In this document: positions 7,726-48,469 of the stretch, piece after piece
Layout of the letters: each line of letters opens with the position of its first letter
Numbering within the stretch: position 1 is the stretch's first letter
Assembly (NCBI GenBank): GCA_020846935.1
Contig: JADLCY010000004.1
Coordinates: 84,921-148,920, forward strand
From: Gemmatimonadaceae bacterium
GTDB taxonomy: Bacteria; Gemmatimonadota; Gemmatimonadetes; Gemmatimonadales; Gemmatimonadaceae
Length of the DNA: 64,000 bases
Direction: 5' to 3'
Notes under the pieces: model-generated
What the model was told of the DNA's origin: nothing
The model's database searches: none
The model's input: the letters and a program-made list of their open reading frames with translations, nothing else
Made by a program: the position numbers and the translations under genes

Positions 7726-7758
7726 CGGGTCTACTCCGGGGAACGGGGACTCAGGCGT

Positions 7759-9167: not shown

Positions 9168-9386
9168 GGAGGCCGAGGGAGTAGCGACGAGACCAGCGAG
9201 GGTGGACGAAGCAGCAGGGACGGAACATGATCCTCGTTCGCGGATCCGTCGGCGCGCGCCCCGTTCCCCCGTTGGTACTGGTGCAGTTTGAATAGAAGCC
9301 GGGCTCGCGGGTGTGAGTGTGCAAGGCCCCTCGTCCAACTCTGTCACGAACGCTCGCTACTGTCCACCTCGGCCCCTCCCCAAGCC

Positions 9387-9902: not shown

Positions 9903-9937
9903 GCGGACGGGCTGGCGATTCACCTGCCCGTCCGCTC
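9901..9937. terminator. bidirectional hairpin between convergent SRPBCC and yceI genes
   Basis: A perfect 12-bp stem, GAGCGGACGGGC (9901-9912) / GCCCGTCCGCTC (9926-9937), encloses a 13-nt loop. It starts inside the TGA of the + strand gene and ends 5 nt before the yceI stop. Confidence 0.6.
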
Positions 9938-9941
9938 GGCC

Positions 9942-10469: not shown

Positions 10470-10498
10470 GGCGAGTTGGGTCGGAGGTGCGTCTTATG

Positions 10499-10519
10499 AC
10501 TAAGTAACTTAGTACTAAG
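10499..10519. promoter_or_regulatory. overlapping perfect palindromes about 30-50 nt upstream of the yceI start
   Basis: ACTAAGT-A-ACTTAGT (10499-10513) overlaps the 12-bp perfect palindrome CTTAGTACTAAG (10508-10519). They sit in an isolated AT-rich patch. Confidence 0.4.
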
Positions 10520-10710
10520 ATAATGTCCGGCGCCGACGCCCGCAAGGGCCTCGGCACGCGCTGGGCGCGCACGCGCAGCTGTGGTGCCTGATTCAGGCGG
10601 GATCGCTGCGGCAGGGCCGGAACCACCTCCACGACCAACACACCTTTCCTGGCGGATGATTCGATGCCCCGCGCCTCGGGGCCGAATCGTTCCGCGAAAA
10701 TCCGGTTCCA

Positions 10711-10740
10711 TTGACGCGGGCGTTGGGGCCCGGCTAGGTT
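10711..10740 (+). promoter_or_regulatory. candidate sigma70-type promoter for the Phe leader transcript
   Basis: TTGACG (10711-10716) is followed by 18 nt and then TAGGTT (10735-10740). The leader ATG lies 8 nt downstream of the -10, so the 5' UTR would be very short or absent. Confidence 0.3.
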
Positions 10741-10747
10741 AGGCGCC

Positions 10748-10822
10748 ATGAACGCCGCCGCCCGCCGCGCCTTTTTCTTCAGCTTTAGCCTCCCACACCC
10801 CGGGGAGAACGGCGGCGCGTAG
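10748..10822 (+). CDS. Phe-rich leader peptide (24 aa) of a transcription attenuator
   Basis: The ATG at 10748 through the TAG at 10820-10822 encodes [24 protein letters not shown]. Four Phe codons fall within five consecutive codons (TTT TTC TTC AGC TTT, 10772-10786). The ORF lies upstream of a terminator and a Phe-biosynthesis gene. Confidence 0.65.
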
Positions 10823-10846
10823 GCAGAAGACGCGATCGAGCCCAAA

Positions 10847-10872
10847 CCTCCCCGAGCGGGGAGGTTTTTTTT
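10847..10872 (+). terminator. rho-independent terminator (attenuator segment 3:4)
   Basis: CCTCCCC (10847-10853), loop GAGC and GGGGAGG (10858-10864) are followed by eight T (10865-10872). The structure ends 41 nt before the ATG at 10914. Confidence 0.75.
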
Positions 10873-10913
10873 GTCCCACGGAATCCCGGAACCAGGAACG
10901 GAGCATTTCCCCG

Positions 10914-12923: not shown

Positions 12924-12969
12924 CACCGGGTTGTCCCGGTCACACCGAAACGTGCGCATATTCCGCCAC

Positions 12970-14106
12970 ATGCGAATCTCGCTCACACGCGCGGCGCTCC
13001 TCGGCGTCCTGTCTGCGGCGACCGTCGACGCACAGTCGGTGGCCGTGACGCTCCTCTCCACCAGGGAGGTCGCGCTCGACGGCGGTGCAACCGAAATGCG
13101 CGGTCTGGTAGCGCTCGACATCTCCGGTACCCGGGTTCCCAAGCGATTCGTGCTGCGTGTGCCGCCCGTCGCGACATGGAACGGCGGGCTCGTGATCGGG
13201 GCGCACGGCGGCAGTGGCGGCGACAACTACGATCGCAGCGGCAAGGTCATTGGCACGGACGAGTCGGCACTCGACGACGTCGTGGGGCGGCAGGCACTCT
13301 CGATGGGATTTGCCTATGCCAGTGTCGATCGTGATGGCGCGGGCGCCTGGCGCGAAGGCTACGGGCTCACGCGCCAGTTCACACGTATCGCCGCCGAGCA
13401 GGTGGCACGGCGCCTGGGCCGCGCGCCGGCACGCACGTATCTCGTTGGCCTTTCGGCGGGCGGTGGCATTGCCCGTCTTGCGGCTGAGGACTCGCTCCGT
13501 GCGTACGCCGGTGTACTGATCATCGCCGGCGCTGGCGGCGACCGGCCAACGCGTCTCGATCGACAGCGCCGGATGGCGGAGCTGTGGCCGCAGGTCGATC
13601 CGCGAACCAGGCCAGAGCTGCCAGCCGACAGTCCGCTCCTCCGTGCCTACGCCGATGCGGTGGGTACGCCGATCGCGGCGCGGCGCCTGTGGCCATACAC
13701 CGGTGCGAGCGCCGTCGCCGCGACCTCTCGCGCCGCACCCGCGCGAACCGACGACGCGACCGGCGTGGTTCAGGTTCCCACGATCGAAGTCGTCGGGAGC
13801 TGGGACGATCTCGTGATCCGTGAGATCCGAGCGTACGATGCACGCGTACGACCGCGCGACCTCCACCGACTCTACGAGGTCGACGGTGCATGGCACATGT
13901 CGCCCGACGACGATGGCGTGTGGTCGTTCCAGTACATCGCGGAGACGCGCATGAAGCTCGGGAGCGACGTCGCCGACGCGATGGGCGAGGGCGCATCCTA
14001 CCTGCCGACCGTGCGCGATGCCTTCAGGCACCCGGTGCGGTGGGTCGAGCAGTCGGTTCCACCTCCGCCCAGTCGGGTGGTTCGGCCAGCGGATGGCCTG
14101 CAGTAA
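12970..14106 (+). CDS. secreted alpha/beta-hydrolase-fold protein, unknown specificity
   Basis: It has a signal peptide ([22 protein letters not shown]) and a candidate nucleophile elbow, [13 protein letters not shown] recognised no closer family. Confidence 0.5.
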
Positions 14107-14121
14107 CACACACACCTCGCG

Positions 14122-15006
14122 ATGACCTCGTCCTCTGGCGTCCTGCTCGACCTGCTCGACCTCGAACCCCTCGAAGTCAACATCTATCGCGGTCAGAACC
14201 GCGACCTCGGTGCGGGGCGGGTGTTCGGCGGCCAGGTGTTCGCGCAGGCTCTGGTCGCGGCGCGTCGAACGGTCGCCGAACCGCGGGAAGCACACTCGGC
14301 GCACGGATACTTCATTCTCCCCGGCGATCTCGCCGCCCCGATCGTCTACTTCGTCGATCGGCTTCGCGACGGCGGAAGCTTTGCGACGCGTCGCGTGACG
14401 GCGATCCAGCACGGCCAGGCGATCTTCAACCTCTCGGCATCGTTCCATCGCGCCGAAGACGGCCGGTCGCACCAGACGCCGATGCCAGAGGTGCCAGCGC
14501 CCGAATCACTCGCGCCCGAGCTGCAGCTCATTCGCGAGATGGCGGACCGCATCCCCGAGCCGCTGCGCGGTGTGCTCACGCAGGATCGACCGATCGACTT
14601 CCGACCGGTGGACCCGATCGACCCGTTCCGACCTGCGGCGCCGAGCGCGCCCGTGCGTCACGTCTGGTTCCGGGCCGTGGGCTCACTGCCTGACGAGTCC
14701 CTGATTCACCAGGCGGTGCTTGCCTACGCGTCCGACTACGGGCTCATCACCACCGCGCTTCAGCCACATGGTCTCACGTTTCGTTCGCGCGGGCTGCAGA
14801 TGGCGTCGCTCGATCATTCGGTCTGGATGCACCGGCCGTTTCGCGTGGATGACTGGCTGCTGTACGCCATGGACAGTCCGGTGGCCGCCGGGGCCCGTGG
14901 CTTTGCACGCGGGACCGTGTATACGCGCACCGGCGAGCTCGTCGCCTCCGTCGCGCAGGAGGGCCTCATGCGGGTTCGTGTCGAGCCCACACCACCCAAC
15001 CAATGA
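14122..15006 (+). CDS. tesB: acyl-CoA thioesterase II
   Basis: The protein is a double hot-dog. LLDLLDLEPLEVNIYRG, GRVFGGQVFAQAL, HSAHGYFILPGD and DGGSFATRRVTAIQHG are characteristic of TesB. Confidence 0.85.
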   Translation: MTSSSGVLLDLLDLEPLEVNIYRGQNRDLGAGRVFGGQVFAQALVAARRTVAEPREAHSAHGYFILPGDLAAPIVYFVDRLRDGGSFATRRVTAIQHGQAIFNLSASFHRAEDGRSHQTPMPEVPAPESLAPELQLIREMADRIPEPLRGVLTQDRPIDFRPVDPIDPFRPAAPSAPVRHVWFRAVGSLPDESLIHQAVLAYASDYGLITTALQPHGLTFRSRGLQMASLDHSVWMHRPFRVDDWLLYAMDSPVAAGARGFARGTVYTRTGELVASVAQEGLMRVRVEPTPPNQ

Positions 15007-16013
15007 TGCTGCCCAGGGTTCTCGGCGCATTCGCCATGGCGCTCGCCGTTCGCGCGGGAGCTGCGCAACAGGTGCATAAGCTGCCGGCCACGCCGCAAAC
15101 CGTCGTCTACGGCTACTACTGGGCCGAGGCAAAGCCGGTGCTGCGGATCAGGTCGGGCGACATCATCGACGTCGAGACGATGATCACGAGCACGCCGCAG
15201 CGCCTGGAGGCGGCAGGGTTGTCGGCAACCGACGTGCAGCAGGCGCTCCGCGACATCGTGGCTCAGGTGACGGATCGCGGCCCGGGCGGGCATATCCTCA
15301 CGGGGCCGGTATACGTCGAGGGAGCCGAGCCGGGAGACGTGCTCGAGGTGAAGGTCCTCTCGATCGGGCTGCCCACTGCCTATGGGTACAATGCATGTCA
15401 GGGCTTCATGCGCGAGCTGTGTGAACGACCCACGACGACCATCGTGCCCCTCGATCGCCAGCGCATGACCGCCGAGTTCCTGCCCGGCATCACCGTGCCG
15501 CTGCGGCCGTTCTTCGGCAGCATGGGCGTGGCACCGCCGCCGGCGCGCGGGCGTGTGAGTTCCGCTCCTCCGGACATCCACGCCGGGAACCTCGACAACA
15601 AGGAACTCGTGGTGGGCACGACGCTCTACATCCCCGTACACGTCGCGGGCGCCTTGTTCGAGGTGGGGGACGGGCACGCCGCGCAGGGCGATGGCGAGGT
15701 GGACATCACCGCCATCGAGACATCGCTCACCGGGCGACTGCAGCTCACGGTGCGCAAGGACATGAAGCTCGAATGGCCGCTGGGGGAAACGCGCACGCAC
15801 TGGATCACGATGGGCATGGACAAGGATCTCACGGTCGCGACGCGCATCTGCGTACAGAACACCGTCAGGTTTCTCATGGAGCGCGCGAGGCTTACGCAGA
15901 CGGAGGCCTATCAGCTCACCAGCGTGGCGGTGGATCTGCGCATCACGCAGTTGGTCGATGGCAACGTCGGCGTCCATGCCATGATCGACAAGGCACTGCT
16001 GGCTCGGCGCTGA
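15003..16013 (+). CDS. acetamidase/formamidase family protein (secreted)
   Basis: HILTGPVYVEGAEPGDVLEV, GNLDNKEL and FEVGDGHAAQGDGEVDITAIE are present. The ATGA start/stop overlap with tesB occupies 15003-15006. Confidence 0.8.
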   Translation: MMLPRVLGAFAMALAVRAGAAQQVHKLPATPQTVVYGYYWAEAKPVLRIRSGDIIDVETMITSTPQRLEAAGLSATDVQQALRDIVAQVTDRGPGGHILTGPVYVEGAEPGDVLEVKVLSIGLPTAYGYNACQGFMRELCERPTTTIVPLDRQRMTAEFLPGITVPLRPFFGSMGVAPPPARGRVSSAPPDIHAGNLDNKELVVGTTLYIPVHVAGALFEVGDGHAAQGDGEVDITAIETSLTGRLQLTVRKDMKLEWPLGETRTHWITMGMDKDLTVATRICVQNTVRFLMERARLTQTEAYQLTSVAVDLRITQLVDGNVGVHAMIDKALLARR

Positions 16014-36384: not shown

Positions 36385-39300
36385 TCAGCGGTCGTCCTGC
36401 TCGAACGGCGAGGACGCGGCGCCCGTACCGCTCGCGCGCACGACCTTCAGGCGCTGCCGCACCGACGTGCCCCCGGCGACGACCGTGACCAGGTACTCGC
36501 CGGGGCCCACCGTGGGCGCCTGAGGCCGACCCTGCAGGGCCTGGAAAGCGTTCTGGCCGGGAGGCGAAATGGCCTGGATGATCTGGAACGCGACCTGGGG
36601 GTCGGTAATGCCCGCCTGCGCTGCGCGGCCGGCCGCGCCACCGGCACCGCCCCCGCGTGGCATGGCGGCCTGCTCACCGGGCCGCGGATTGAAGCGATCA
36701 CCAGCGAACGCGGGCGTGGGGCCGGATGCCGCGCCGCCGACGCCGAACGCCTGCATCATCTGATTCATGTCGCCACCCTCGACCATACGCCGGAAGTTGG
36801 CGACGGCCGCGGAATCCATGCCTGACTTCAGCAGCGAGTCGAACACGAAGGCCCGCCGATTGGCAGCCACCGCGGAGTCGCGGCGCTGCGAGGGACTGAG
36901 CGGCCGCGGGGGCGGCGCCTTGCCCCGGAAATCCCAAACGACCTTGTGCACCCCGATCCCGGACGGGCCGGTGAGCGTGCGCAGCGTGTCGCCGGTGACG
37001 TCCTGGATATAGATGCGCGTCGCGGTGTTGCCGCGCTCTGTCAGCCGATAGGTGATCTCAGCGCCATAGGTCGGAACCGGTTGAGCGAACCACATGTGAC
37101 CGTACGACGCGCCACCCGGGCCCTGGCCTTCGATCGGCGGATCGCCCCACTGGAAAGCGATGCGTGGCTCATAGACATGTACTGCGGTTGCCACGACCGC
37201 TGGCGTCTCCTGCTGCAGCGGCAGGATGTCGACGATCCAGACGCCACGTCCATGCGTGGCGGCAATGAGCTCGTGGTCGCGCGGATGGATCTTGAGATCG
37301 GTCACGGGGACGGTTGGCAAGCCGGTCATGAACCGTCGCCACGACACGCCACCATTGGACGACGCATAAGCGCCGACATCGGTTCCGACGAAGAGCAGGT
37401 TCGGGTTCACCAGATCCTGCTTGATGACGTGCACGAAGTCGGGGCCACCGGTGGGCAGGTTCGCGGCGATCGACACGAAGCTCTTGCCGTAGTCGGTGGT
37501 GCGGTACACGTAGGGCGCAAAGTCGCCGACGCGATGATTGTCGAACGTCACGAACCACGTCGAGGAGTCGTGCGGGGACGGCTCGATTTCGCTCACATAC
37601 GCGTTGGCCGGCAGGCCGGGGAAGTTCTTCGAATGTTCGTCCCAGCTGCCGCCATCGTTCCGGCTGCTCCACACGCGCCCGTCATCGGTTCCGACATAGA
37701 GCAGCCCGGGCCGCAGCGGCGACTCGGCGAGCGAGACGATCGTGCCGTACGTCTCCGCGCCCGTGGCGTCTGGGGTGATGCCGCCCGTGGCTCGAGTGGA
37801 GACGCGGATCTTCATGGTGTCCGCGTAGCTCAGATCCGGCGAGATGGGGAACATCTCGTCGCCGCGTTTCGTGGACTTCATCACGCGGTTGGCACCGAGG
37901 TAGAGCGTAGTGTTGCTGTGCGGTGAGATGAAGTACGGCGTGTTCCAGTTCCAGCGGAGATCGAGGCCGGCCGAGTCGGCTTTCTGGCGCGCGCGCAACT
38001 CGGCGATGCGCTTCCTGATCGCCGAGGATTCGCGCACGGTCGTGTCGCCGCGCGCGACGATGATCGAGTCTTCCCACGCCTGCCAGGTGGCACGCCATGT
38101 CGGCTTGGCCAGCGACGTGCGTTCACCGGTGCGCATGTCCACACGTCCGACGTTGCCGCCCTGCGTCTCGGAATACGCGATGTGGGCTTCCACCGGATCC
38201 TGCTGTGTGACGAAGCCGTCGCCACCGCTGAGCGTGGCCCACATCGCGTTCGTGATCACGCCGCTCCGGCGGCGCGAGGGGCCGCACCACGATCCGTTGT
38301 CCTGCAGCCCGGCACAGACGCGGTAGGGCACCTGCATGTCGAACGACACGTTGTAGGGCTGGGCCAGCGTGAACGTGTTGGGGAACACGTAGCTGCCGCC
38401 CTGGTCAAAGCTCACGCCCACGCCGCCGTCGTTGCCGACGATCATGCGTTCGGGGTCGACCGGGTCGATCCACATGCCATGGTGATCCACGTGCAGACCT
38501 ACGGTCGCGTTCATCGCCGTCTTCCCGCCGTCGTTGGACACCTTCACCGGCGTGGAGGACCAGTACACGCGATCGGGATTCTTCGGGTGCACGCGAACCT
38601 GCGAGTAATAGAAGGGCCGCGTGTTTTCGTTGTTCGTGCGCGTCCATGTGGCGCCGCCGTCGGCAGAGCGGTAGAGTCCCGACGGTCGCGTCTGTGGCGC
38701 CTTCTTCGGCGCGTTGCGCGGCTGTGGATTGGCCGCGGTGTCGGCTTCGACCATGGTGTAGATCACGCGCGGGTCCGATGGTGCGATCGCGATGCTGATG
38801 CGGCCTTTCATTGTTTCCGGAAAGCCGCCGCCCTTGATCTCGGTCCACGTGCGACCGGCATCGGTGGACTTCCAGAGCGCCGATCCAGGGCCCCCCGACT
38901 GCAGGGAGTACGGGCTCCGTACGCGTTCCCAGCTCGCGGCCCACACCACGTCGGGGTTCGACGGATCGAGTGCCACGTCCACCACGCCGGCCTTGTCGGA
39001 GACGAACTTGACCAGCTCCCACGATTGGCCGCTGTCCGTCGTCTTGTACAGGCCGCGCTCCTTGTTGGCGTTCCAGATCGCGCCCACCGCGGCCACGTAC
39101 ACGATGTCGGGGTTGGTCGGATGCACGACCACGCGGCCGATGGCCTGCGTGCGCTCGAGGCCCATGAGCTTCCATGTGAGCCCGCCGTCGTTGGACTTGT
39201 AGACGCCGCCGCCGGGCGAGATCGAGTTGCGCGAGTTCGCCTCGCCCGTGCCCGCCCAGATCTGCATCGTGTCACTGGGCGCGATGGCGAGGTCGCCCAT

Positions 39301-39588
39301 CGAGATCACGCGCTCGCGGTCGAAGACCGGGCGCCACGTGACGCCGTTGTTGGTGCTCTTCCAGATGCCACCGGCCGCGGCGGCGAGGAAGAACGTCTTG
39401 GAGGGCGACGGAATGCCTTCGACGTCGGAGACGCGACCGCTGGTGTTGGCCGGGCCGACGTTGCGCCACTTGAGCGCAGCGATGGCGAGCGTGTCGCCGT
39501 CGTACCCGTTTATCTGTGCAGAGACCACGGGCGTGGTGGTGCACAGGAGTACGCACGCGGCGGCGAGTCGGAGCGCGGGATGAGACAT
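36385..39588 (-). CDS. sortilin/VPS10-like BNR (Asp-box) repeat protein, secreted
   Basis: The start is MSHPALRLAAACVLLCTTTPVVSAQ at 39588. Many Asp-box repeats are present: KSTNNGVTW, KSNDGGLTW, KTTDSGQSW, KSTDAGRTW, RSADGGATW, SRNDGGSW. Confidence 0.8.
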   Translation of the reverse strand: MSHPALRLAAACVLLCTTTPVVSAQINGYDGDTLAIAALKWRNVGPANTSGRVSDVEGIPSPSKTFFLAAAAGGIWKSTNNGVTWRPVFDRERVISMGDLAIAPSDTMQIWAGTGEANSRNSISPGGGVYKSNDGGLTWKLMGLERTQAIGRVVVHPTNPDIVYVAAVGAIWNANKERGLYKTTDSGQSWELVKFVSDKAGVVDVALDPSNPDVVWAASWERVRSPYSLQSGGPGSALWKSTDAGRTWTEIKGGGFPETMKGRISIAIAPSDPRVIYTMVEADTAANPQPRNAPKKAPQTRPSGLYRSADGGATWTRTNNENTRPFYYSQVRVHPKNPDRVYWSSTPVKVSNDGGKTAMNATVGLHVDHHGMWIDPVDPERMIVGNDGGVGVSFDQGGSYVFPNTFTLAQPYNVSFDMQVPYRVCAGLQDNGSWCGPSRRRSGVITNAMWATLSGGDGFVTQQDPVEAHIAYSETQGGNVGRVDMRTGERTSLAKPTWRATWQAWEDSIIVARGDTTVRESSAIRKRIAELRARQKADSAGLDLRWNWNTPYFISPHSNTTLYLGANRVMKSTKRGDEMFPISPDLSYADTMKIRVSTRATGGITPDATGAETYGTIVSLAESPLRPGLLYVGTDDGRVWSSRNDGGSWDEHSKNFPGLPANAYVSEIEPSPHDSSTWFVTFDNHRVGDFAPYVYRTTDYGKSFVSIAANLPTGGPDFVHVIKQDLVNPNLLFVGTDVGAYASSNGGVSWRRFMTGLPTVPVTDLKIHPRDHELIAATHGRGVWIVDILPLQQETPAVVATAVHVYEPRIAFQWGDPPIEGQGPGGASYGHMWFAQPVPTYGAEITYRLTERGNTATRIYIQDVTGDTLRTLTGPSGIGVHKVVWDFRGKAPPPRPLSPSQRRDSAVAANRRAFVFDSLLKSGMDSAAVANFRRMVEGGDMNQMMQAFGVGGAASGPTPAFAGDRFNPRPGEQAAMPRGGGAGGAAGRAAQAGITDPQVAFQIIQAISPPGQNAFQALQGRPQAPTVGPGEYLVTVVAGGTSVRQRLKVVRASGTGAASSPFEQDDR

Positions 39589-40191
39589 GTGACGGTGGCG
39601 AGGTGGGGAGACCGCGCATGAGTGAGCGCGCCGGATTCTATGTGGGGGCCACAAGCATGGGGAGGGAATGCCGTGCGGGGCCACGGGTGCGGGCGCGGGA
39701 CCAGCCAGCGGTCGCTGGGGAGTTTGCGCTGTGGGGAGGATCCTGAGGGTCTACGCGCGACCGGCTGGGGAGTGGTCGGACATTCGCGCAAGTACGGCAT
39801 CGACCTGTGCTGCGTCGTTGCCTTCTCCAGGCTTTCTCAGCGATGGCAGATAACCGGCCTGTTTGGCCGTGGTGCGATCGTGTGTTGATCGTGGTACAGC
39901 GTTCGCGTTGCTCCGGTCGCGCTTCCTCCGCGCTGTCGTTCTCGAGTGATGCTCTCCATCATAGAGTCTTGTGCGCCGTTCGGGCGCAGCATAAGAAGTC
40001 GACCGGCGTTCTGGTGACCAACGCCCAAGGTGATGGTGGTGTGGGACTTGGCCGCCATCTTCCTGAGGCAGGGCGCAGGTCGTATGCTGCGGATGGCGTG
40101 CTGGATAAGACCTTCGACGTGCGGCGAAGGGTTTGCAGCGCAGCCCAATACACGTTAGACCGAAGCACACCCTCTTGCGAGGAACTCACGA

Positions 40192-41022
40192 TTGCCGATG
40201 TCCCGTTTCCTCTTCGCGAGACTGAACCTCATCGCCGAGTACGACGACAAGCGGGCGTTCGTCCTGAAGGGGCTCAGTGGCCACCAGACCCGCAAGGTGC
40301 GATCGCACTTGTGGGGATTCTTCGAGGTCGAAGAGCTACCCGACTTTCCTGACTACGTAACGGGCTACCTCACGAAGCTCAAGCCGCTGTATGCCGAGGA
40401 GGTCGGGAATCTCGAAACTCATCAACTTGGCACCTCCGACGTAGCGAACCTAGCGGTAGCGAAGTCTCGCTTCTTTCTGCATATCCGGACGGGTATCGTC
40501 GCGTACCATGTGATCTCAAACCACGTTACGCGGCCGGTGTTCGAGGAGCAGTTTGCGCGGCTCTTCGAAGAGGGGCACCAGAAGTTCTTTGTGTCCGCGG
40601 ACCTGCAGACTATTGAGGCACGCGAGAGCTTCATGAAAGCGCTCGCATCAATGGAGCGCGTTGCCTTCCTCACACTCGAGCTGCATCCAACGAACCCATC
40701 TTTCTCGGAGATCTATCGAACGGTGGACGAGCGCCTAAAGCGGATTAAGGCGAAGTCCTACCGCGAGGAGATCGCCGCCTCCCGCGAGGGTCCAGGCCTG
40801 GTAGTAGGCGACGATGAGGATGTCGCGCGAAAGGTGACAATGGCTGAGGACGGCTATGGCCGGGCAGTCGCGGTCGGGACGCGCAACGGGAAGCGCTCCT
40901 CGATCGCCACAAGCCAGAATCCTGTCTCAACCCACGCGGATACCCGAGAGCGATCAGCGGGCCAGATTCTAGGTGCGATTGTGGACGACTTCGCCGCCCT
41001 GTTTCGGAGGATCTCCGAGTGA
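40192..41022 (+). CDS. hypothetical soluble protein (276 aa), first gene of a two-gene cassette
   Basis: GAGGAA (40179-40184) lies 7 nt before the TTG at 40192; an ATG follows at 40198. No hydrophobic helices and no motif I can assign. G+C is visibly lower than in neighbouring genes. Confidence 0.7.
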   Translation: MPMSRFLFARLNLIAEYDDKRAFVLKGLSGHQTRKVRSHLWGFFEVEELPDFPDYVTGYLTKLKPLYAEEVGNLETHQLGTSDVANLAVAKSRFFLHIRTGIVAYHVISNHVTRPVFEEQFARLFEEGHQKFFVSADLQTIEARESFMKALASMERVAFLTLELHPTNPSFSEIYRTVDERLKRIKAKSYREEIAASREGPGLVVGDDEDVARKVTMAEDGYGRAVAVGTRNGKRSSIATSQNPVSTHADTRERSAGQILGAIVDDFAALFRRISE

Positions 41023-41498
41023 GCCGCCGTCTCGGGATGCTCATCGGCATCGACGTCATCGCCGCACTCATTGTGCTTGCCGTGCTGCTTGCCTCACTGC
41101 CGACGTTCGTGCCCGTTCAGGTCGCCAAAGAGTTCTTCGGCGTGAGCGCTTCGGTGCTGTCAATCGTGTTCTCAGTATTTACGGCAGCTCTCGCGGTGAT
41201 CATCTCGTCCCCCGACGACAAGTTTGTGCGCTGGCTTGAGTCTGAGGGGATCTATAGGGACATTCTGTTCGGATTCAAGTCTACTCTTCTCGCGCTCTTC
41301 ACTGCCCTTGTCTCAAGCATCGGCGCGTTTTCGTGGACCGTGTTTCAGATTGAGGCTGGAGTGCGACTTCAACATCGGTCGGGGCTTCTAATTGGCTCCA
41401 CCTTGCTCGCCTATGCTTTGGTCGCAACGTTGCTCAGCACGCTAGCCGCGATTCGGCATGCTCACGCGAGGGCGGACTTCCTGCGCGGCTCGGTCTAA
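41019..41498 (+). CDS. hypothetical four-helix integral membrane protein (159 aa), second gene of the cassette
   Basis: GGAGGA (41006-41011) lies 7 nt before the GTG at 41019, and GTGA overlaps the upstream stop. The four hydrophobic segments are MLIGIDVIAALIVLAVLLASL, VSASVLSIVFSVFTAALAVIISS, STLLALFTALVSSIGAFSWTVF and LLIGSTLLAYALVATLLSTLAAI. Confidence 0.7.
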   Translation: MSRRLGMLIGIDVIAALIVLAVLLASLPTFVPVQVAKEFFGVSASVLSIVFSVFTAALAVIISSPDDKFVRWLESEGIYRDILFGFKSTLLALFTALVSSIGAFSWTVFQIEAGVRLQHRSGLLIGSTLLAYALVATLLSTLAAIRHAHARADFLRGSV

Positions 41499-41532
41499 CG
41501 GCAGTTGGTGACCGACGGCCGTCTAGGGAAGC

Positions 41533-41583
41533 TGGTGGGCGGCCGCACCTTATCGTACCTTTCGGTACGGCGCGGCCGCCCAC
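41533..41583. terminator. nested perfect hairpin between convergent cassette and doc genes
   Basis: The outer 13-bp stem is GGTGGGCGGCCGC (41533-41545) / GCGGCCGCCCACC (41571-41583). It encloses an inner hairpin, CGTACC-TTTC-GGTACG (41553-41568). Confidence 0.55.
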
Positions 41584-41620
41584 CTGCATCTTATTGAATC
41601 GGCCGCGGCACAACTTGACG

Positions 41621-42025
41621 TTAGGCGGCCCCCTGAGGCAACTTGACCAACCCTGCGCGAAGCCACTTCGCGAGCTTTGCCTCCGTAAGGCGCCCGTCGG
41701 CCAGTGCGACCATGTGCGCGACCACGTCGGCGTCGGGCGCGACGAAGTCCCAGCCGTTGAGCCCCAGGAAAATGACCGCCACGAGGAATGCGATGCGCTT
41801 GTTGCCGTCGTTGAACGGGTGGTTCCGGGCCAGTCCGAAGGCATACGCGGCGGCGAGCGAGGCATGATCGACGCGTTTGCCGTAGGCCAGCTTGTTGCAC
41901 GGCCGCGCCAGGGCGCTCTCGAGTGCCCCCTCATCCCGGAGACCAGGCATGCCGCCATGCGCGCGCAGCTGATCGAGATGCACCGCCTCGACGAGCGCGC
42001 GTGGAACCCAGCGAGGCTCGCGCAC
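41621..42025 (-). CDS. doc: Doc (death-on-curing) family Fic-fold toxin
   Basis: The Doc/Fic motif is HPFNDGNKRIAF. LRDEGALESALARP lies upstream. The start is a GTG at 42025, 6 nt after the antitoxin stop. Confidence 0.85.
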   Translation of the reverse strand: MREPRWVPRALVEAVHLDQLRAHGGMPGLRDEGALESALARPCNKLAYGKRVDHASLAAAYAFGLARNHPFNDGNKRIAFLVAVIFLGLNGWDFVAPDADVVAHMVALADGRLTEAKLAKWLRAGLVKLPQGAA

Positions 42026-42031
42026 GCCGCG

Positions 42032-42259
42032 TTACTTCGCCAGTTCGCGGAGGGCGTGCCGGTACCGTTTCGCGGCGCGCGCCGCGAGCGCCAGGCCGGC
42101 TTCGATGGTGGGATCGTAGGGCGTGAGCAGAATCCCGTTCTCGGTCTCGATCGCCAGCATCGAGTCGCCGACGGCGAGGTGGAGACGGTCGGCCATATCT
42201 TTCGGCAGGGTCGCGCCGACGGACCCGCCGACTTGCCGGAGTTTGATGGGACGCACCAT
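42032..42259 (-). CDS. AbrB/MazE/SpoVT-type antitoxin
   Basis: MVRPIKLRQVGGSVGATLPKDMADRLHLAVGDSMLAIETENGILLTP is a looped-hinge-helix (SpoVT/AbrB) fold signature. The ATG is at 42259. Confidence 0.8.
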   Translation of the reverse strand: MVRPIKLRQVGGSVGATLPKDMADRLHLAVGDSMLAIETENGILLTPYDPTIEAGLALAARAAKRYRHALRELAK

Positions 42260-42267
42260 CTTGCAAG

Positions 42268-42285
42268 GTAGCACACCCGTGCTAC
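42268..42285. promoter_or_regulatory. inverted repeat just upstream of the antitoxin start (candidate TA operator)
   Basis: GTAGCAC (42268-42274), ACCC and GTGCTAC (42279-42285) form the repeat. It lies 9 nt upstream of the antitoxin ATG, in the divergent intergenic region. Confidence 0.45.
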
Positions 42286-42331
42286 TGCGCCAAGGAGCCT
42301 CCAGTCCATTGTTGCAGCTGACGGCGGAGCT

Positions 42332-42832
42332 ATGGAGGGCGCTGAGGCACTCGCCGCGCTCGTGTCCACAGTGCGAAATGCCCCATTCCGCCGCAGCACC
42401 CTGCGTCGCGATGGCGCGTTTCGGCAGTGGACCAACGGAGATCTCCACGCGCGCCTTGAGCCGACGGAAACTGGCCATCGACTGCGATCGAGTACGCGCA
42501 AGGGTGAGGGGCCGGTCCTTCTGCGGCTGGGCGCCGCGGCCTTCGCTCTGTCGACGATGATGGCGGCGGCGATGCCGGTCGCCCCGGGCTGGGCCACCAT
42601 CGGACTCACCGCCTTCTCCGGCGTGGTCGGCCTGGCGGGGCTGTCGGTCCTCGCACTTCGCCTGCCCCGCTGGGCCCGAGTGCGCGCCGCGCAGATGGAA
42701 CAGATTGGAGTGCGCTTCGCCGCCTTGACCGAACAGAGGTCACTGCCCGCGCATCCCTCTGCGGGAGCCCGGGACGCGGTCGGCGATGCGTCGCCCGTGC
42801 TGGCAGCCACCGGGCGCGACGGGCTGACGTGA
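42332..42832 (+). CDS. hypothetical protein with two predicted TM helices
   Basis: The ORF has strong third-position G/C bias. Two hydrophobic segments are present (LLRLGAAAFALSTMMAAAMPV and IGLTAFSGVVGLAGLSVLAL). I recognised no family. Confidence 0.4.
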   Translation: MEGAEALAALVSTVRNAPFRRSTLRRDGAFRQWTNGDLHARLEPTETGHRLRSSTRKGEGPVLLRLGAAAFALSTMMAAAMPVAPGWATIGLTAFSGVVGLAGLSVLALRLPRWARVRAAQMEQIGVRFAALTEQRSLPAHPSAGARDAVGDASPVLAATGRDGLT

Positions 42833-42954
42833 GCCTTGGGGCGGGGCGCTGAGCCTCGGCGCGGGTCCCCACCTAAACGCTGAGAGCCCACCTGGCGTAG
42901 ACCCGTTCTCCGGACGCTTTACACTTTTGGGTGTGGAGGTCCGTTGGCGCCCCT

Positions 42955-45900
42955 TCAAGTCGCTCGCGCCAACAACGGAAACCCGAGCTGGCGCGCACGC
43001 ACCCCTGCCTCCACCAACCGACGCTCGGCGGACTTGAGTCCGGCGCGCTGTAGCTCCGGCGCACACTCGGTCACGAGCCACACGCTGGCGTAGGCATCGA
43101 GCCCGTCGAGACGGTCCACGGCACGCGCGAACACGTCCTGCGCCACGTTCGGATGACCGCCAGCAATCGCCATGCGCACCGCGAACGCGTCCACGAGTTC
43201 GCGGCCGGGGAACCACCAGTCCGGACGCGCATCAGCGACCAGCGCACTCGTACGCGCCCACCGCTGCTGCGTCGACGCCGACGTCGGGCCACCATTGCTC
43301 AATGCGGCGCCCGCCGTCGCGGCAAGCTCCATCCACGCCAGATCGAGGTCGCGCGCTCGCCGAGCCACGGCATCGAACTGCGCCTGCGCCCGATCACGAT
43401 CACCGCCGTCCCTGAGGAGCCGCGCGCCATCGAACAGCGTGCCGATGCGCTCGGGCTCGTCTTCCATGGTCGTGAACAGTCGCTCCGCGTCACCAAGCCA
43501 CTGGCGCGCCTCGTCATGATTGCCCTGGCGCGTACGTACGACGCCGAGCGCGCGGGAGATGCGTGCCGCGAGCGGGGCGTGATGGCTCGCGCGCGCCCGT
43601 TCCAGCGCCTGCACGAGCAGGTCCTCACCTTCGGACGACGCCTCCTGACGACACAGCGCCTCGCCAAGCACCTGCAGCGCGCGTGCGTCGTGCGTCGCGT
43701 GGGGACGCGCGCGCTGGCGTTCCAGCGCCTGACGCAAACGTGGCAGGCCCAGCTCGGGTGACTCCGCCAGTTGCGCGGTTCCCAGCTCAAGCATGGCCTC
43801 GGTGACGATGGCGTCGTCGCCGTGCGCAACACCCAGTTCGAGCGCCCGGCTCGCGAAGTGCTCGGCCATCGGCCAGTCGGCACGCTCGGCGGCGCTGGCG
43901 GCAGCGGCGAGGGCGCTCAGCGCCTCTTCGCGCGGGTGCACGCTGGCGGCGTCGTCGACGAGTCGTCGCAAGGCGTCCATCGTGTCGCCGGAGAAGGCGC
44001 CGCGCCGCTGCCGGATCCACGCGCGGACCCGGCGTCCGCGGATCGCGGTCGCGTCTACGGGTTGGCGGTCGAGCCACTCGAGCGCGAGGTCCGCCTGGGC
44101 CTCGGCCTGCGCGAGCCGGCCGGCCTGCAGCGCCACCTCGGCGTGCCGGACGCGGATGGTCGCGAGGTCTGCTGACGAGGGGGCGTGGCGCTGCGCGACC
44201 AGCAGGGCGGCGATGGCCGCGTCGTGAACACCGGTACCTAACGAGCGCTCCGCCGCTGCGCGTGCGTAGGCAAAGGCGGCGGCATCGTTGCCGGCGGCGT
44301 GGTAGTGGCCGGCGATCGCGTCCACCGAGGACGGGGCACGGAGTTCCATCACGCGAGCCGCAAGGTCGTGCACCTGCTGGCGCTGTCGCTCCGCCATCCC
44401 GCGCACACAGGCCTCGACGAGCAGCGGGTGGCCGAAGGCGTAGCGTCCTTCCGCGGGGTCTCCGACCGCCACGAGGATCGATGCGCGTACCGCTTCTTCG
44501 AGGGCGAGTCGCGCCTGGCCCTCAGGGACGCCGGTGACCGACACCAGCAGCTCGACGGTGAGGACGTTCTGCAGCACGGCGGCCGACGACAGGATGCTGC
44601 GCGAGGAGCCGGAGAGCCGATCGAGTCGTCGATCGAGCACCCAGCCGATACCGCTCGCCACGTCGCGCGGCCCCGGTTCGCGCCATTCCCACCGCGTGCC
44701 GCCGTACCAGATCGTGCCGTCGTCGCACCCGGCGCGCAGCAGGTGGAGCACGTGCAGCGGGATCCCTTCGGCGTAGTCATGGATCCAGCGCGCGACGTCG
44801 TCACCGGGGGCCGCATCGCGGAACACGAGCCGGATCCAGCGTCGCACTTCGTCGAGCCCAAAGCGCCGCAGCGTCACATGCGTGGTGCGCGCGTGCGCCA
44901 GGATCCGTCGCCGCCACTCGACCGCGCCGGGATGCACCTCGGGCCGCATGGTGTGGATGACGAGGAGGTGCTCGTCGTCCACCGCGGTGAGCAGGGCGTC
45001 GAGCACGGCCCAGCTGGCTGGCGTGGCGAGGTGCATGTCTTCGAGCACGACAACCAGCGGTCGTTCCCGCGCCGCTCGACGGACCACCGCGGTGATCTCC
45101 TGCTGCAGCAGTGTCGCGTCGGGCTCCTCGTCCTCGACGTCGGCCGGCGCCAGTTCGCCCGGCACAAGCGCAGGCAGCGCGCGCCAGGCGCGATCATGCA
45201 CGACGCCGGCCTTGGCCAGCGCGCTCACCACCGCGGGCCACGGCGCGAGCGGTCCGCCGGAGCCGTCGGCGGTCGTGATCCCGGTGGCAAGGAGCCCGTT
45301 GCGCAGTCGCACCTCGGGCTCGAGCTGCCTGACGAGTGCGCTCTTTCCGACCCCGGCTTCGCCGGAAATGCCGACGAGCCGAGGTTCGCCACGCGCGGCG
45401 AGGTCCAGCTGAGCGACGACGGATCGCAGCTCTTCTTCGCGGCCGGTGAACACGTCGAAGTCCAGCCCGTGTCGCGCGCGCGCCGACTCACCGTGGTCGG
45501 CCACCACGACGCGGCCACCGCCTTCGCTTCGCGCACGGAAGAGCGCCCGATCGCCGGCGGCGAGCAAGGCTTCCACCGTCTCGCCATCACCGGGCGCCAC
45601 CGCCACCGCGACCGAGGCGACCACCACGAGCGTCTCGTCAGGCGCGTGGCGCAGCGCGCAGCGCAGTCCACCCACCGCGTCTCGCAGCCGCTCGGCGACC
45701 TCCGTCGCCACGTTGACCGTGGTCTCCGGCAGCAGGACCACGAACTCGTCGCTCCCGCGACGGCCGATGAGATCACCGGTGCGCACGCCGCGTTGCAGCA
45801 CCTTGGCCACGGCCCACAAGACGTCGTCGCCCTGCAGCCGACCCCAGGTCGCGTTGACACGCGCAAAGTCGTCGATGTCGACGATGAGGATGGCGACATC

Positions 45901-47622
45901 ACCTTCAGGTCCGCGTCGCGCGCCGAGTGCCGCACTCGCGCGCGCGCTCCAGGACACGAAGTCGGCCGCACCGGTGAGTGGGTCGTCGGCCAGCGCGGTC
46001 GCGTTGCCCTGCGGCGTGACGGGAACGGCAACCGAAGACGTCACGCCGGGGATGGCGACGCCCTCGCGCACCACGTCCTCGAACACGCGGAAGACGGCGG
46101 GGTCGAACTGTCGCCCCACATCGCGCCGCATGACCTCGATCGCTTCGTCGCGGGTCAGCGGATCCTTGAAAGCGCGCCGAGCCAGGAGCGCATCGAACAC
46201 ATCGGCCACACAGAAGATGCGTGCCGCCAGCGGGATCTCCTCGCCGGCGCGACCGTGCGGATAGCCCGACCCGTTCCAGCACTCGTGATGCGACTCGACG
46301 ATGGGCCGCACTTCCCAGGGGAAGTCGGTATCGGCGAGCAACTCCGCGCCTGCGGCGGGGTGCCGCTTCACGGCCGACCACTCGTCCGCGGTGAGGCGCC
46401 CGCGTTTGTTGAGGATTGCCGGCGCGATCGCGAGCTTTCCGAGGTCGTGCAGGTACGCACCGACCCGGTAGCCGAACAGTGCCGTGGGGGCGATACCCAT
46501 GCGGCGTGCGATCTCCACGGTAAGGTCGGCCACGCGATCGACGTGACCCGCGGTATCGTGATCGACTGCTTCGAATCGTTGGGCCCAGTGCCGGGTCACG
46601 TCGAGGAACGTGCGTTCGAGCCGCCGGAGTCGTCGGGCGCGTTCCACCGAGCCGGTCTGCCCAAGGAGCCGGGCCAGGCTTCGGTAGGCATGGTTGAGTG
46701 CGCCAAGCGTGCGACGATGGTCGGGGCGACGGGCCAGGACCTCGGTGCGCTCGCAGGCCAGCTCGCCCAGCAGCATGGCGTCGTCGAGGGCATGCGCCTG
46801 GCGCTCGGCGTCCTCGAACAGCCGGAGCGCGCGATCGAGGTCGCCCAGCTCGCGGGCGACGATGCCCGTCATCGCCACGCTTTCGGTCGCGAGCCCCGGA
46901 TGTTCGGCGCGCCGCGCCATGTCGAGCGCGCGCTCGGCGGACACGCGGGCGCGCTCGACGTTGGACCGGTCGATCGCCATCTGCGAGCGCACCAGCTCGA
47001 GCCGGGCCAGCGATGGCAGGTCACTCGCCCGCTGCGCCCGCGGCAGTGCGTCCGCCAGCGCCTGCTCGGCGGCATTCCATCGTTTGAGATCGACGTAGAA
47101 GCGGGCGAGCTGCAGCTGTACCCGCACCGTGTCGGCGTCATCCCCGCGTTCGCGGAAGCCCGCGGCCGCGGCTTCGAGCTGGTCGAGGCTCGCGCCCCAG
47201 TCGTCGCGCACGAGCGCGACCGAGGCAAGGTGCTCGCTGCCTAACGCGACGAGCCAGCCCTGCCCCGCCGCCGCGGCCCGCACGCCCATTTCGCGGAAGT
47301 CGGCTTCGGCGTCGTCCAGCGCGCCCGCTTCGCACGCCAGCCGACCGCGCAGCTCCAGCGCCTCGGCGACGATCGCATCCATGTCGCCAAAGTCGGGGAG
47401 CGCAAACACGGCCTCGAGACAATCCCGCGCTTCCGCGTTCCGACCCGACGCCACGAACGTCCGGGCGATCTGCAGGAGCAGCGCAGCGACTGCAGGCGGT
47501 GGGGCGTCGTGATCGAGTTCCCGCATCGCGCGCTCGTAGTATTCGCGAGCGGCCTGAAACTCACCTCGCGCTTCAGCGAGGCGGCCGGGGTCCAGGGAGT
47601 GCGGATCGAGACGCGATGGCAT
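42955..47622 (-). CDS. large multidomain signalling protein: TPR-like N-terminus, HD-GYP, GGDEF-like, P-loop STAND/AAA_16 NTPase, long TPR-like C-terminus
   Basis: The start was reassigned to the ATG at 47622 (MPSRLDPHSL). HD-GYP motifs are LHDLGK and HHECWNGSGYP (nt 46258-46290). The GGDEF-like motif is RRGSDEF (45742-45762), with RTGD five residues upstream. Walker A is GEAGVGKS (45340-45363) and Walker B-like is LVVVLEDMH (45031-45057). About 690 further helical residues follow, and I recognised no HTH. Confidence 0.85.
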   Translation of the reverse strand: MPSRLDPHSLDPGRLAEARGEFQAAREYYERAMRELDHDAPPPAVAALLLQIARTFVASGRNAEARDCLEAVFALPDFGDMDAIVAEALELRGRLACEAGALDDAEADFREMGVRAAAAGQGWLVALGSEHLASVALVRDDWGASLDQLEAAAAGFRERGDDADTVRVQLQLARFYVDLKRWNAAEQALADALPRAQRASDLPSLARLELVRSQMAIDRSNVERARVSAERALDMARRAEHPGLATESVAMTGIVARELGDLDRALRLFEDAERQAHALDDAMLLGELACERTEVLARRPDHRRTLGALNHAYRSLARLLGQTGSVERARRLRRLERTFLDVTRHWAQRFEAVDHDTAGHVDRVADLTVEIARRMGIAPTALFGYRVGAYLHDLGKLAIAPAILNKRGRLTADEWSAVKRHPAAGAELLADTDFPWEVRPIVESHHECWNGSGYPHGRAGEEIPLAARIFCVADVFDALLARRAFKDPLTRDEAIEVMRRDVGRQFDPAVFRVFEDVVREGVAIPGVTSSVAVPVTPQGNATALADDPLTGAADFVSWSARASAALGARRGPEGDVAILIVDIDDFARVNATWGRLQGDDVLWAVAKVLQRGVRTGDLIGRRGSDEFVVLLPETTVNVATEVAERLRDAVGGLRCALRHAPDETLVVVASVAVAVAPGDGETVEALLAAGDRALFRARSEGGGRVVVADHGESARARHGLDFDVFTGREEELRSVVAQLDLAARGEPRLVGISGEAGVGKSALVRQLEPEVRLRNGLLATGITTADGSGGPLAPWPAVVSALAKAGVVHDRAWRALPALVPGELAPADVEDEEPDATLLQQEITAVVRRAARERPLVVVLEDMHLATPASWAVLDALLTAVDDEHLLVIHTMRPEVHPGAVEWRRRILAHARTTHVTLRRFGLDEVRRWIRLVFRDAAPGDDVARWIHDYAEGIPLHVLHLLRAGCDDGTIWYGGTRWEWREPGPRDVASGIGWVLDRRLDRLSGSSRSILSSAAVLQNVLTVELLVSVTGVPEGQARLALEEAVRASILVAVGDPAEGRYAFGHPLLVEACVRGMAERQRQQVHDLAARVMELRAPSSVDAIAGHYHAAGNDAAAFAYARAAAERSLGTGVHDAAIAALLVAQRHAPSSADLATIRVRHAEVALQAGRLAQAEAQADLALEWLDRQPVDATAIRGRRVRAWIRQRRGAFSGDTMDALRRLVDDAASVHPREEALSALAAAASAAERADWPMAEHFASRALELGVAHGDDAIVTEAMLELGTAQLAESPELGLPRLRQALERQRARPHATHDARALQVLGEALCRQEASSEGEDLLVQALERARASHHAPLAARISRALGVVRTRQGNHDEARQWLGDAERLFTTMEDEPERIGTLFDGARLLRDGGDRDRAQAQFDAVARRARDLDLAWMELAATAGAALSNGGPTSASTQQRWARTSALVADARPDWWFPGRELVDAFAVRMAIAGGHPNVAQDVFARAVDRLDGLDAYASVWLVTECAPELQRAGLKSAERRLVEAGVRARQLGFPLLARAT

Positions 47623-47716
47623 TTCACGGTTCAGCAAGGCAACTATAGACGATTCACGGCGGCCCCGGTTGCGGAAGTCGAGTGCCGCGCGGGAGTTACG
47701 CCAGACCCCTCTGTGT

Positions 47717-48469
47717 ATGCGTGTCGTTTCGCTCTGTCCGTCGCTCACCGAGCTCGTCTTCGACCTGGGGATGGGCCCCGCGCTCGTCGGCCGCACGAAG
47801 TTCTGCGTGCATCCTGCACCGGGGGTGGCCAACGTGGAAACAGTCGGCGGGACAAAGACGCCCAAGGTGGCCCGTATCATCGACTTGCGTCCCGATATCG
47901 TGCTCATGAACGACGAGGAGAATCGTCGGGAAGACGCCGGGGCGCTGACCGCGGCCGGAGTTCGCGTCCACTCGACCATGCCGATCACCGCGGAGGAGAC
48001 GGCCGCCATGGTGCGATCGATCGCTGATGCGCTCGGCGCCACCGATGCCGGAGAGGCGGTCGCGCGCGACATCGAGCGGCGGGCGGCGCGCGTGCGTGCG
48101 GCCGCGACGTCTGCGCCGCACGTCGACTATGCGTACCTCATTTGGCGCGAGCCCTGGATGACCGTGAGCGACGACACCTTCATCGCCGGGCTCCTGGGCA
48201 TGGCCGGCGGCCGCAACGTCTTTGCTGACGCGAAAGACCGATATCCCACGATCACGCTCGAGCAGCTCGCAGAACGGTCGCCATCGGTGGTGTTGCTGTC
48301 GAGCGAACCGTTTCCGTTCGCTGAAAAACACGTCGACGAGCTGTCATCCACGCTGGGCTGGGAGGTGGGCCGCTTTCGACTGGTAGACGGCGAGCTGCTT
48401 TCGTGGCACGGTTCGCGGACGCCCCGGGGAATCGACTACGCCGAATCCGTCATCGCGGCGGCGCGGTGA
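47717..48469 (+). CDS. BtuF-like helical-backbone binding protein (cobalamin/metal receptor fold), no signal peptide
   Basis: MRVVSLCPSLTELVFDLGMGPALVGRTKFCVHP ... VGGTKTPKVARIIDLRPDIVLMN is typical of the Peripla_BP_2 / cobalamin-binding family. Confidence 0.7.
   Translation: MRVVSLCPSLTELVFDLGMGPALVGRTKFCVHPAPGVANVETVGGTKTPKVARIIDLRPDIVLMNDEENRREDAGALTAAGVRVHSTMPITAEETAAMVRSIADALGATDAGEAVARDIERRAARVRAAATSAPHVDYAYLIWREPWMTVSDDTFIAGLLGMAGGRNVFADAKDRYPTITLEQLAERSPSVVLLSSEPFPFAEKHVDELSSTLGWEVGRFRLVDGELLSWHGSRTPRGIDYAESVIAAAR

Follow-up and report, generated by a model that had tools for sequence, protein, structure and literature searches.

Known Rex-Type Systems and a Related Gene Pair

No phage-exclusion system has been known for longer than the RexAB pair of phage lambda, yet there is no settled account of the way in which infection is sensed by RexA and the membrane is damaged by RexB. 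Both families are narrow and mostly enterobacterial; RexB comprises 23 clusters, mostly from enterobacteria. Pairs of a soluble and a membrane protein also occur in actinophages, where heterotypic phage exclusion has been shown for Sbash gp30/gp31, CarolAnn gp44/gp43 and Butters gp30/gp31, and HHpred ties the Pfam family DUF4747 to RexA as well as to gp30 of Sbash and gp44 of CarolAnn, all of them encoded beside a protein with four transmembrane segments (PMC6426596; PMC6426606; PMC7542560). According to the model proposed in these papers, a phage product triggers the soluble protein, which in turn activates its membrane partner, an ion channel (PMC6426596; PMC6426606; PMC7542560). By sequence, these validated analogues are barely recognisable. 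RexA forms dimers and binds DNA without sequence specificity, as do its homologues from actinophages; exclusion does not strictly depend on DNA binding (PMC11077077). A study from 2026 lists 'DUF4747/CarolAnn' among the predicted immune operons under control of the CapK-CapS DNA-damage switch (PMC13373217). Here, we analyzed a stretch of 64,000 nucleotides from a metagenome-assembled genome of a Gemmatimonadaceae bacterium (assembly GCA_020846935.1, contig JADLCY010000004.1, positions 84,921 to 148,920; referred to as the window, to which all positions given without a locus name refer) that contains two overlapping genes, here termed A and B, for a soluble protein of 276 amino acids (aa) and a small membrane protein of 159 aa.

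We regard it as fairly likely that this locus represents a Rex-like cassette for abortive infection (phage exclusion) of the 'DUF4747/CarolAnn' kind that is self-contained and horizontally mobile. Direct support comes from the genes themselves, their coupling and co-inheritance, the fold of A, the number of helices in B, the mobility of the pair and its frequent location next to defence genes or in prophages.

The resemblance to lambda RexA/RexB (PF15969/PF15968) that had been pointed out in the initial annotation on the basis of size, gene order and topology is borne out and is further strengthened by the RexA fold of A, the four helices of B and the co-inheritance of both genes. The order of the genes is the same and the sizes are close (276 and 159 aa here, 279 and 144 aa in lambda), A shares the layout of RexA with a split globular domain and an inserted domain, its partner is a membrane protein with four helices, and in some relatives the pair resides beside a prophage repressor. 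There are also clear differences. The genes overlap by 4 nt here, whereas rexA and rexB are 15 nt apart, the pair is located on a chromosome of the Gemmatimonadaceae outside of any recognisable prophage, and no similarity of A or B to RexA or RexB is detectable at the sequence level. The initial annotation had left the latter point unassessed; we tested it with Pfam and hhalign and found no such similarity.

The actinophage pairs CarolAnn gp44/gp43, Sbash gp30/gp31 and Butters gp30/gp31 likewise consist of a soluble protein linked to DUF4747 via HHpred and a following protein with four transmembrane segments, and the central cytoplasmic loop of the latter is functionally important. However, their soluble proteins comprise 370–372 aa and are thus about 100 aa longer than A, and the pairs are prophage-borne and stem from Actinobacteria. 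CarolAnn gp44 does not match the Pfam DUF4747 model even at an E-value of 10, whereas A does so at 1.5e-4, and neither A nor B exhibits hhalign similarity to CarolAnn gp44/gp43. At the sequence level, A and its relatives are closest to the DUF4747 operons found downstream of capK-capS in Acinetobacter and other bacteria (PMC13373217), although capK-capS genes are not present upstream of the pair described here and A scores under the Pfam threshold. By fold and architecture, the pair would work like RexAB; by sequence, it stands outside of PF15969, PF15968 and the CarolAnn/Sbash families. The initial annotation had proposed a novel system. This does not hold, because DUF4747 has already been tied to RexA and the validated Sbash and CarolAnn pairs (PMC6426596; PMC6426606) and has been predicted as part of an immune operon (PMC13373217). 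The kind of system is thus known and named in the literature, while this clade is previously undescribed. PADLOC v2 does not recognise it, and the pair is 'hypothetical' in the annotation by the NCBI Prokaryotic Genome Annotation Pipeline (PGAP), so that current defence-finder libraries and PGAP overlook it entirely.

A looser similarity to Kiwa (KwaA/KwaB) and to cyclic-oligonucleotide-based (CBASS) or Pycsar systems with transmembrane effectors had also been suggested. It is confined to the general logic of a soluble and a membrane component: the PADLOC models miss A and B, A contains neither a DUF4868 nor a cyclase domain, and none of these systems is encoded adjacent to the pair. As no component matches, kinship with these systems was rejected.

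Two Translationally Coupled Genes

Gene A (40192..41022, + strand) begins with TTG and ends with a TGA stop codon at 41022, while an alternative ATG start at 40198 would yield 274 instead of 276 aa. Gene B (41019..41498, + strand) begins with GTG, ends with TAA and encodes 159 aa. Both genes share the sequence GTGA at 41019–41022, precisely as initially claimed, and the two Shine-Dalgarno sites were likewise found at the spacing reported for them: the sequence GAGGAA at 40179–40184 (+ strand) lies 7 nt 5' of TTG 40192 and GGAGGA at 41006–41011 (+ strand), within the 3' end of gene A, lies 7 nt 5' of GTG 41019. In a DNA alignment with the related loci L033 and L042, the GAGGA core of the gene A site is kept. 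The start codon at 40192 is retained as TTG or GTG in the two nearest relatives, one of which lacks the ATG six nucleotides downstream. The start at 40192 assumed in the initial annotation is therefore preferable to the ATG chosen by NCBI. With 25 homologues for A and 17 for B, both are real genes and not chance open reading frames (ORFs).

Inheritance and Mobility of the Pair

Relatives of A were retrieved from 26 genome loci and from further metagenome contigs. In 22 of 28 loci, an intact gene A is followed by a gene for a B protein of 156–191 aa whose four hydrophobic segments occupy matching positions. The overlap between the two genes amounts to 4 nt in half of the loci (14 of 28) and to 11 nt in five of the 28. 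The hosts belong to the Gemmatimonadota, Bacteroidota, Ignavibacteriota, Acidobacteriota, Chloroflexota, Abditibacteriota, Armatimonadota, Marinimicrobia and Cyanobacteria. When pairwise identities of A were compared with those of B across 21 loci, a correlation coefficient of 0.81 was obtained (Mantel test, 0 of 2000 permutations), which indicates that both genes are inherited together and evolve together. The initial annotation had named co-occurrence in other genomes as a point to be checked, and this is indeed what we find across approximately nine phyla.

The B protein of L014 has three hydrophobic segments only. L020 and L028–L031 look degraded or mis-framed, with L028–L030 possibly representing frame artefacts of our script. 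In L020, gene A is truncated and is not followed by a B gene, and L031, from a metagenome-assembled genome of the Thermosynechococcaceae, contains merely a fragment of A beside a B-like protein of 232 aa that is extended at its C-terminus.

A blastn comparison of window positions 38500–43500 with all fetched loci yielded 78% identity for L033–35 and 75% identity for L042–43, and this only from 40140 or 40150 to 41543 or 41544. The segment 40140..41544 (+ strand) is thus the only part for which the nearest relatives possess homologous DNA; while their proteins are 85–86% identical, their flanks are unrelated to the window. This restriction of homology points to a cassette of 1.4 kb that has been inserted at different places, and its neighbours vary even at 85% identity. 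The conclusion that the two genes form an autonomous unit, which the initial annotation had drawn from their layout, is therefore strengthened: they are coupled, co-inherited and move as a cassette.

Some relatives reside on recognisable mobile elements. L036 (IMGVR_UViG_3300010338_002266, 4235–15692) places the pair within a Mu-like transposable prophage, in the order MuA transposase, CII-like protein, HTH_3 repressor, 199-aa ORF, A, B, Panacea/PemK, Mu G, Mu F and portal protein. The pair is located downstream of the HTH_3 repressor gene and on the same strand, an arrangement that recalls cI-rexA-rexB, and the gene layout at L009/L010 from Melioribacter sp. is as in L036. Several accessory modules are stacked in the immunity region of L036. 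Among viral data, sequence relatives were confined to one IMG/VR contig, and a tblastn search of GenBank phages with A gave no match. L047 is plasmid unnamed5 (NZ_CP016488.1, 27 kb) of the cultured cyanobacterium Picosynechococcus sp. PCC 8807, which carries the pair at 5970–7369 (WP_065717474.1 and WP_157096896.1, both annotated as 'hypothetical'); neither protein matched a PADLOC family at E ≤ 1e-3. This plasmid offers a culturable entry point to the Rex mechanism.

Protein A Resembles RexA in Its Predicted Fold

The only Pfam family matched by A is DUF4747 (PF15931; 21.7 bits, E = 1.5e-4, profile positions 104–254 of 257). The precomputed flag for PF15931 is present on all 25 homologues of A (E ≤ 3e-50), and when the model was run against 23 aligned family members, 10 matched at E < 0.01 with 2.4e-7 as the best value. 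As DUF4747 is the sole Pfam family matched, we consider A a divergent branch or a close sister of this family. According to the initial annotation, neither protein exhibits a family motif. For A, this has to be revised in view of the sub-threshold DUF4747 match; B lacks a model in Pfam, PADLOC and NCBIfam. A search with the A-family profile retrieved 664 clusters (represented at 50% identity) at E ≤ 1e-3 and 208 at E ≤ 1e-30, and nearly all of the 150 matches listed are about 270–290 aa long. The motifs AKSRFFL, LHPxNP and MAxDGYG are invariant.

A was modelled with AlphaFold2 on the basis of the family alignment, with a mean local confidence (pLDDT) of 88 and a predicted template-modelling score (pTM) of 0.75. 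When this model was compared with the PDB using Foldseek, a check proposed in the initial annotation, the best match was lambda RexA (8TWQ_B; E = 1.4e-6, probability 1.0, 321 aligned columns), followed by Escherichia coli RdgC (2OWL; E = 5.9e-6) and then by chains of the kinetochore proteins CENP-N/Chl4. The structural neighbours published for RexA itself are RdgC, IML3/CHL4 and Cas2 (PMC11077077), and the list obtained for A is essentially the same. The model consists of a β-rich part (residues 1–128), an α/β insert (133–240) and a long C-terminal helix (254–273). RexA has a split globular domain (1–139 and 248–279) with an inserted dimerisation domain (143–234), and the order of secondary structure elements in the model of A matches these published domain boundaries. 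We regard A as a soluble cytoplasmic protein with a predicted two-domain fold of the RexA/RdgC type. Sequence searches of the PDB with A and the A profile gave chance-level matches only (a mitoribosomal protein and a galactanase).

RdgC, a DNA-binding protein associated with recombination and the second-best structural match, belongs to the fold group of RexA (PMC11077077). It differs from A in that it is encoded by a stand-alone housekeeping gene, has no membrane partner, possesses a tip domain in addition and assembles into ring-shaped dimers, whereas A is mobile and paired with B.

Protein B Is a Putative Four-Helix Membrane Protein

Kyte-Doolittle analysis of B revealed four hydrophobic segments at positions comparable to those in lambda RexB. 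The AlphaFold2 model (pLDDT 85.6) contains helices at residues 3–25, 33–63, 78–112 and 121–158 and a small β-bridge between loops 1 and 3. Eight lysine and arginine residues are located at the N-terminus, in the central loop and at the C-terminus versus three in the other two loops, a distribution that favours an orientation with both termini and the central loop in the cytoplasm. B is thus probably a four-helix inner-membrane protein with cytoplasmic N- and C-termini. Its central loop (residues ~64–80, SPDDKFVRWLESEGIY) is acidic and conserved. In an alignment of 31 sequences from many phyla, the best-conserved part of the protein is the end of the second transmembrane segment together with this loop, VLSIVFSVFFAALAIIISSxDDxFVxFLExxGxY, from which the loop motif SSxDDxFVxFLExxGxY can be derived. 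It parallels the functionally important loop in the membrane proteins of the actinophage systems. Together with the invariant residues of A and the breadth of the clade, which comprises 664 clusters and is alignable across phyla for both partners, this loop provides targets for mutagenesis, for co-variation analysis and for structural work on an A-B complex. A search of Pfam gave no model for B other than a weak match to CbiQ (E = 0.014, under the cut-off), and the proposed link between B and RexB is one of predicted topology.

The best viral structural matches of the two proteins, A0A8S5S8L2 for A (E = 2e-15) and A0A8S5S8H0 for B (template-modelling score 0.67, E = 2.7e-3), are both encoded by Siphoviridae sp. 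ctylc9, which suggests that a structurally similar pair exists in at least one phage. In the fold search with B, a 165-aa protein of Sbash, the length reported for gp31, appeared at rank 14 (E = 1.2).

Proposed Mode of Action and Alternative Explanations

If lambda RexAB and the pairs of Sbash and CarolAnn are a guide, A may act as a sensor that contacts B, B may have channel activity, and the pair may confer a defence phenotype. A would be a cytoplasmic and probably dimeric protein with the capacity to bind nucleic acid or a complex made by the phage, while B would be translated by coupling to A and would expose its acidic central loop probably to the cytoplasm. In the uninfected cell, the pair would be inert. 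Upon infection, A would sense a phage-derived cue and engage the cytoplasmic loop of B, which would then open or oligomerise into an ion-conducting pore. The resulting collapse of membrane potential or proton-motive force and of ATP would abort phage development at the expense of the infected cell.

Several observations weigh against this interpretation. The channel mechanism is a model even for lambda RexAB, RexA has a role in the lysis-lysogeny decision that is independent of RexB (PMC11077077), and an exclusion function of the clade described here is suggested by analogy. For A, the DUF4747 score of 21.7 bits lies under the Pfam gathering cut-off of 27 bits, and the RexA hidden Markov model (HMM) PF15969 gave no match at E ≤ 1, whereas it detects lambda RexA at 1e-97. 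Comparisons with hhalign reached a probability of 0.5% at most against RexA, also when 150 A sequences were set against four RexA sequences, and of 0.3% against CarolAnn gp44. For B, there was no match to the RexB HMM PF15968 at E ≤ 1, and hhalign yielded a probability of 1.8% for 31 B versus 15 RexB sequences (P = 0.028; the second and third transmembrane segments and the loop between them are in register, but this is not significant) and of 0.1% against CarolAnn gp43. Neither protein has a model in PADLOC, NCBIfam or PHROGs; in PADLOC-DB v2.0.0, there was no family at E ≤ 1 for either of them. The global template-modelling score of A versus RexA is only 0.35. This low value plausibly reflects a closed versus an open domain arrangement in the structures compared, as the crystal form of RexA is closed and AlphaFold gives an open state even for RexA (PMC11077077). 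Finally, the Doc toxin-antitoxin pair is the sole defence-like neighbour in the window, and many relatives have housekeeping neighbourhoods.

An unlikely, more far-reaching reading is that the pair represents a distinct and mainly chromosomal clade of RexA-fold sensors, comprising several hundred 50%-identity clusters from at least nine mostly environmental phyla and equipped with a four-helix partner of its own that is not homologous to RexB, has no Pfam model and carries the loop SSxDDxFVxFLExxGxY. If this reading were true, the design of a RexA fold combined with a small membrane protein would have arisen or diversified far beyond temperate phages, and the cue (DNA damage or a recombination intermediate, for example) or the membrane output might differ.

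Among the rival explanations, the one that survives best, although we consider it quite unlikely, is an addiction or stabilisation module of the toxin-antitoxin type, in which B would be a membrane-damaging toxin and A its protein antidote, with no dedicated sensing of phage; the pair would then persist as selfish DNA or serve to stabilise islands, plasmids and prophages. A compact, mobile cassette of low GC content with two tightly coupled and co-inherited genes would suit such a module, as would the plasmid copy in L047 and the presence of classical toxin-antitoxin genes in the neighbourhood (Doc/AbrB in the window, Panacea/PemK in L036 and HigB in L047), and in one review, the pairs of Sbash, CarolAnn and Butters are indeed described as putative modules of the toxin-antitoxin type with membrane effectors (PMC11856565). 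However, A is large (276 aa) and has a fold of the RexA/RdgC DNA-binding type, unlike small antitoxins, and those analogues that have been characterised exclude phages upon a phage-borne trigger and were non-toxic until a specific phage protein was present. Moreover, toxin-antitoxin behaviour and abortive infection can coexist.

The match to RdgC (E = 5.9e-6) brings up a decidedly unlikely second possibility, namely that A is mainly a DNA-transaction or regulatory protein, for example an RdgC-like modulator of recombination or a RexA-like modulator of the lysis-lysogeny decision of a prophage, which B merely tethers or sequesters at the membrane, with any exclusion being a by-product. The dimeric state and non-specific DNA binding of RexA and its homologues from actinophages would be in line with such a role, as would the location of the L036 pair in the immunity region of a Mu-like prophage. 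On the other hand, there is no prophage or repressor near the pair in the window and most other loci, the patchy and mobile distribution is not that of a housekeeping recombination factor, and the strict conservation of B and its co-evolution with A speak for a membrane partner with an integral role.

That the cassette serves lysis in the manner of a holin, or encodes an ordinary membrane complex for transport or housekeeping, as might be suggested by the small multi-helix nature of B and its faint similarity to CbiQ, is hardly credible and was rejected, since the CbiQ match is non-significant, genes for endolysins, spanins, transporter ATPases or substrate-binding proteins are not linked to the pair in any locus, the distribution is patchy and mobile, and the pair in the Mu-like prophage lies beside the repressor and outside of the late/lysis region.

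Signals Flanking the Cassette

A GC-rich inverted repeat at 41528..41590 (arms 41528–41555 and 41563–41590) with a perfect GC core of 13 bp is situated between the convergent genes B (+ strand) and doc (− strand). Folding of 41495–41600 gave a free energy of −62.4 kcal/mol (z = −6.55), and none of 200 shuffled sequences was as stable. A U-tract is lacking and the structure was not called in a scan for intrinsic terminators, the lone terminator-like call of which falls inside gene A. This hairpin is probably a bidirectional terminator. The hairpin noted in the initial annotation at the end of the pair thus exists, but the designation as dedicated to it is wrong, since its position between convergent genes and the missing U-tract speak for a shared element.

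On the upstream side, a leader sequence of 13 nt, GTTAGACCGAAGC (40155..40167, + strand), is invariant in a three-way DNA alignment of the window, L033 and L042. It is possibly a promoter, an operator, a leader or an insertion-boundary element. Upstream of GTTAGACCGAAGC, the DNA of the three loci is unrelated and cannot be aligned. A scan for sigma-70 promoters found none, including around this 13-mer, and an Rfam scan of 39400–43000 gave no match. When the flanks were searched for direct repeats and for scars of insertion, the only find was an imperfect 15-nt direct repeat (13 of 15 positions), TGGTGACCAACGCCC at 40012–40026 and TGGTGACCGACGGCC at 41506–41520, that loosely flanks the cassette. 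It is probably due to chance, as the left copy lies outside of the homology region shared with the relatives.

Genetic Neighbourhoods of Related Loci

The association of the pair with defence genes and mobile DNA is frequent, though not quantified: the scan of 130 neighbouring ORFs provides counts of families and not of loci, and carries no enrichment statistic. At L033–35 and L042–43, the neighbours include methyltransferase-restriction genes of the MmeI/Eco57I type, accompanied by an IS3 transposase gene in L033. L002 (1–7942) has genes for an MmeI-type methyltransferase, a sigma-70-domain protein and a PLD-helicase upstream of the pair. A Schlafen-like helicase, a TIR protein, an SNF2/NOV_C helicase and DUF1156 are encoded at L037, while L038 features NOV_C, GIY-YIG, a type III-like methyltransferase with ResIII and a TnsA-like nuclease. 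On contig P0014, the pair has genes for Mrr, a Y2 transposase, two HsdM proteins and one HsdS protein as neighbours; XisH/XisI and IS21 are found at L039, and BglII with a methyltransferase at L041. The plasmid L047 carries dndD/dndE and genes for an HNH nuclease, HigB and a phosphorothioation-associated methyltransferase. Across the loci, GmrSD, IS1595 and genes for the PemK and Doc toxin-antitoxin systems also occur.

In L033 (11507–16294) and L042 (5243–10003), the pair is followed by the same three genes, a short MmeI_Mtase-like ORF, a gene for a protein of 535 aa with an Eco57I domain, and a further ORF that encodes about 846 aa and has no or faint Pfam similarity. This set may constitute a recurrent, co-travelling restriction-like module.

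Surroundings of the Pair in the Window

The pair lies in an islet of low GC content, as initially described, with 57–61% over 39800–41600 versus 65–73% in the flanks. The adjacent toxin-antitoxin pair was confirmed as well. The Doc/Fic toxin gene (41621–42025, − strand), convergent to gene B, matches Pfam Fic at 3e-15 and TIGR01550 at 6e-16. Next to it, an ORF of 148 aa (42032–42478, − strand) encodes an antitoxin with an AbrB/MazE fold. As the domain is confined to residues 78–148, the true start is probably an internal ATG near 42256. Neither phage genes nor an integrase gene are present near the pair, and the window does not contain a tRNA gene. The defence-island context that had been postulated is therefore thin in the window itself, where it consists of the toxin-antitoxin genes and the low GC content only, and much stronger at related loci.

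The gap of approximately 700 nt between the antitoxin gene and the next large gene holds a candidate ORF of 166 aa (42332–42832, + strand) with hydrophobic stretches, for which PADLOC gave no match. The large gene itself is a 1705-aa signalling ORF (42955–48072, − strand) that combines HD_5 (HD-GYP), GGDEF, AAA_16 and tetratricopeptide (TPR) domains, a STAND-like architecture for cyclic di-GMP signalling. The initial annotation had taken it for a giant STAND NTPase and a sign of a defence island; in view of this domain composition and the absence of a PADLOC match, we rejected it as a defence STAND and regard it as weak evidence for such an island. Its long N-terminal extension suggests that the true start is located further downstream.

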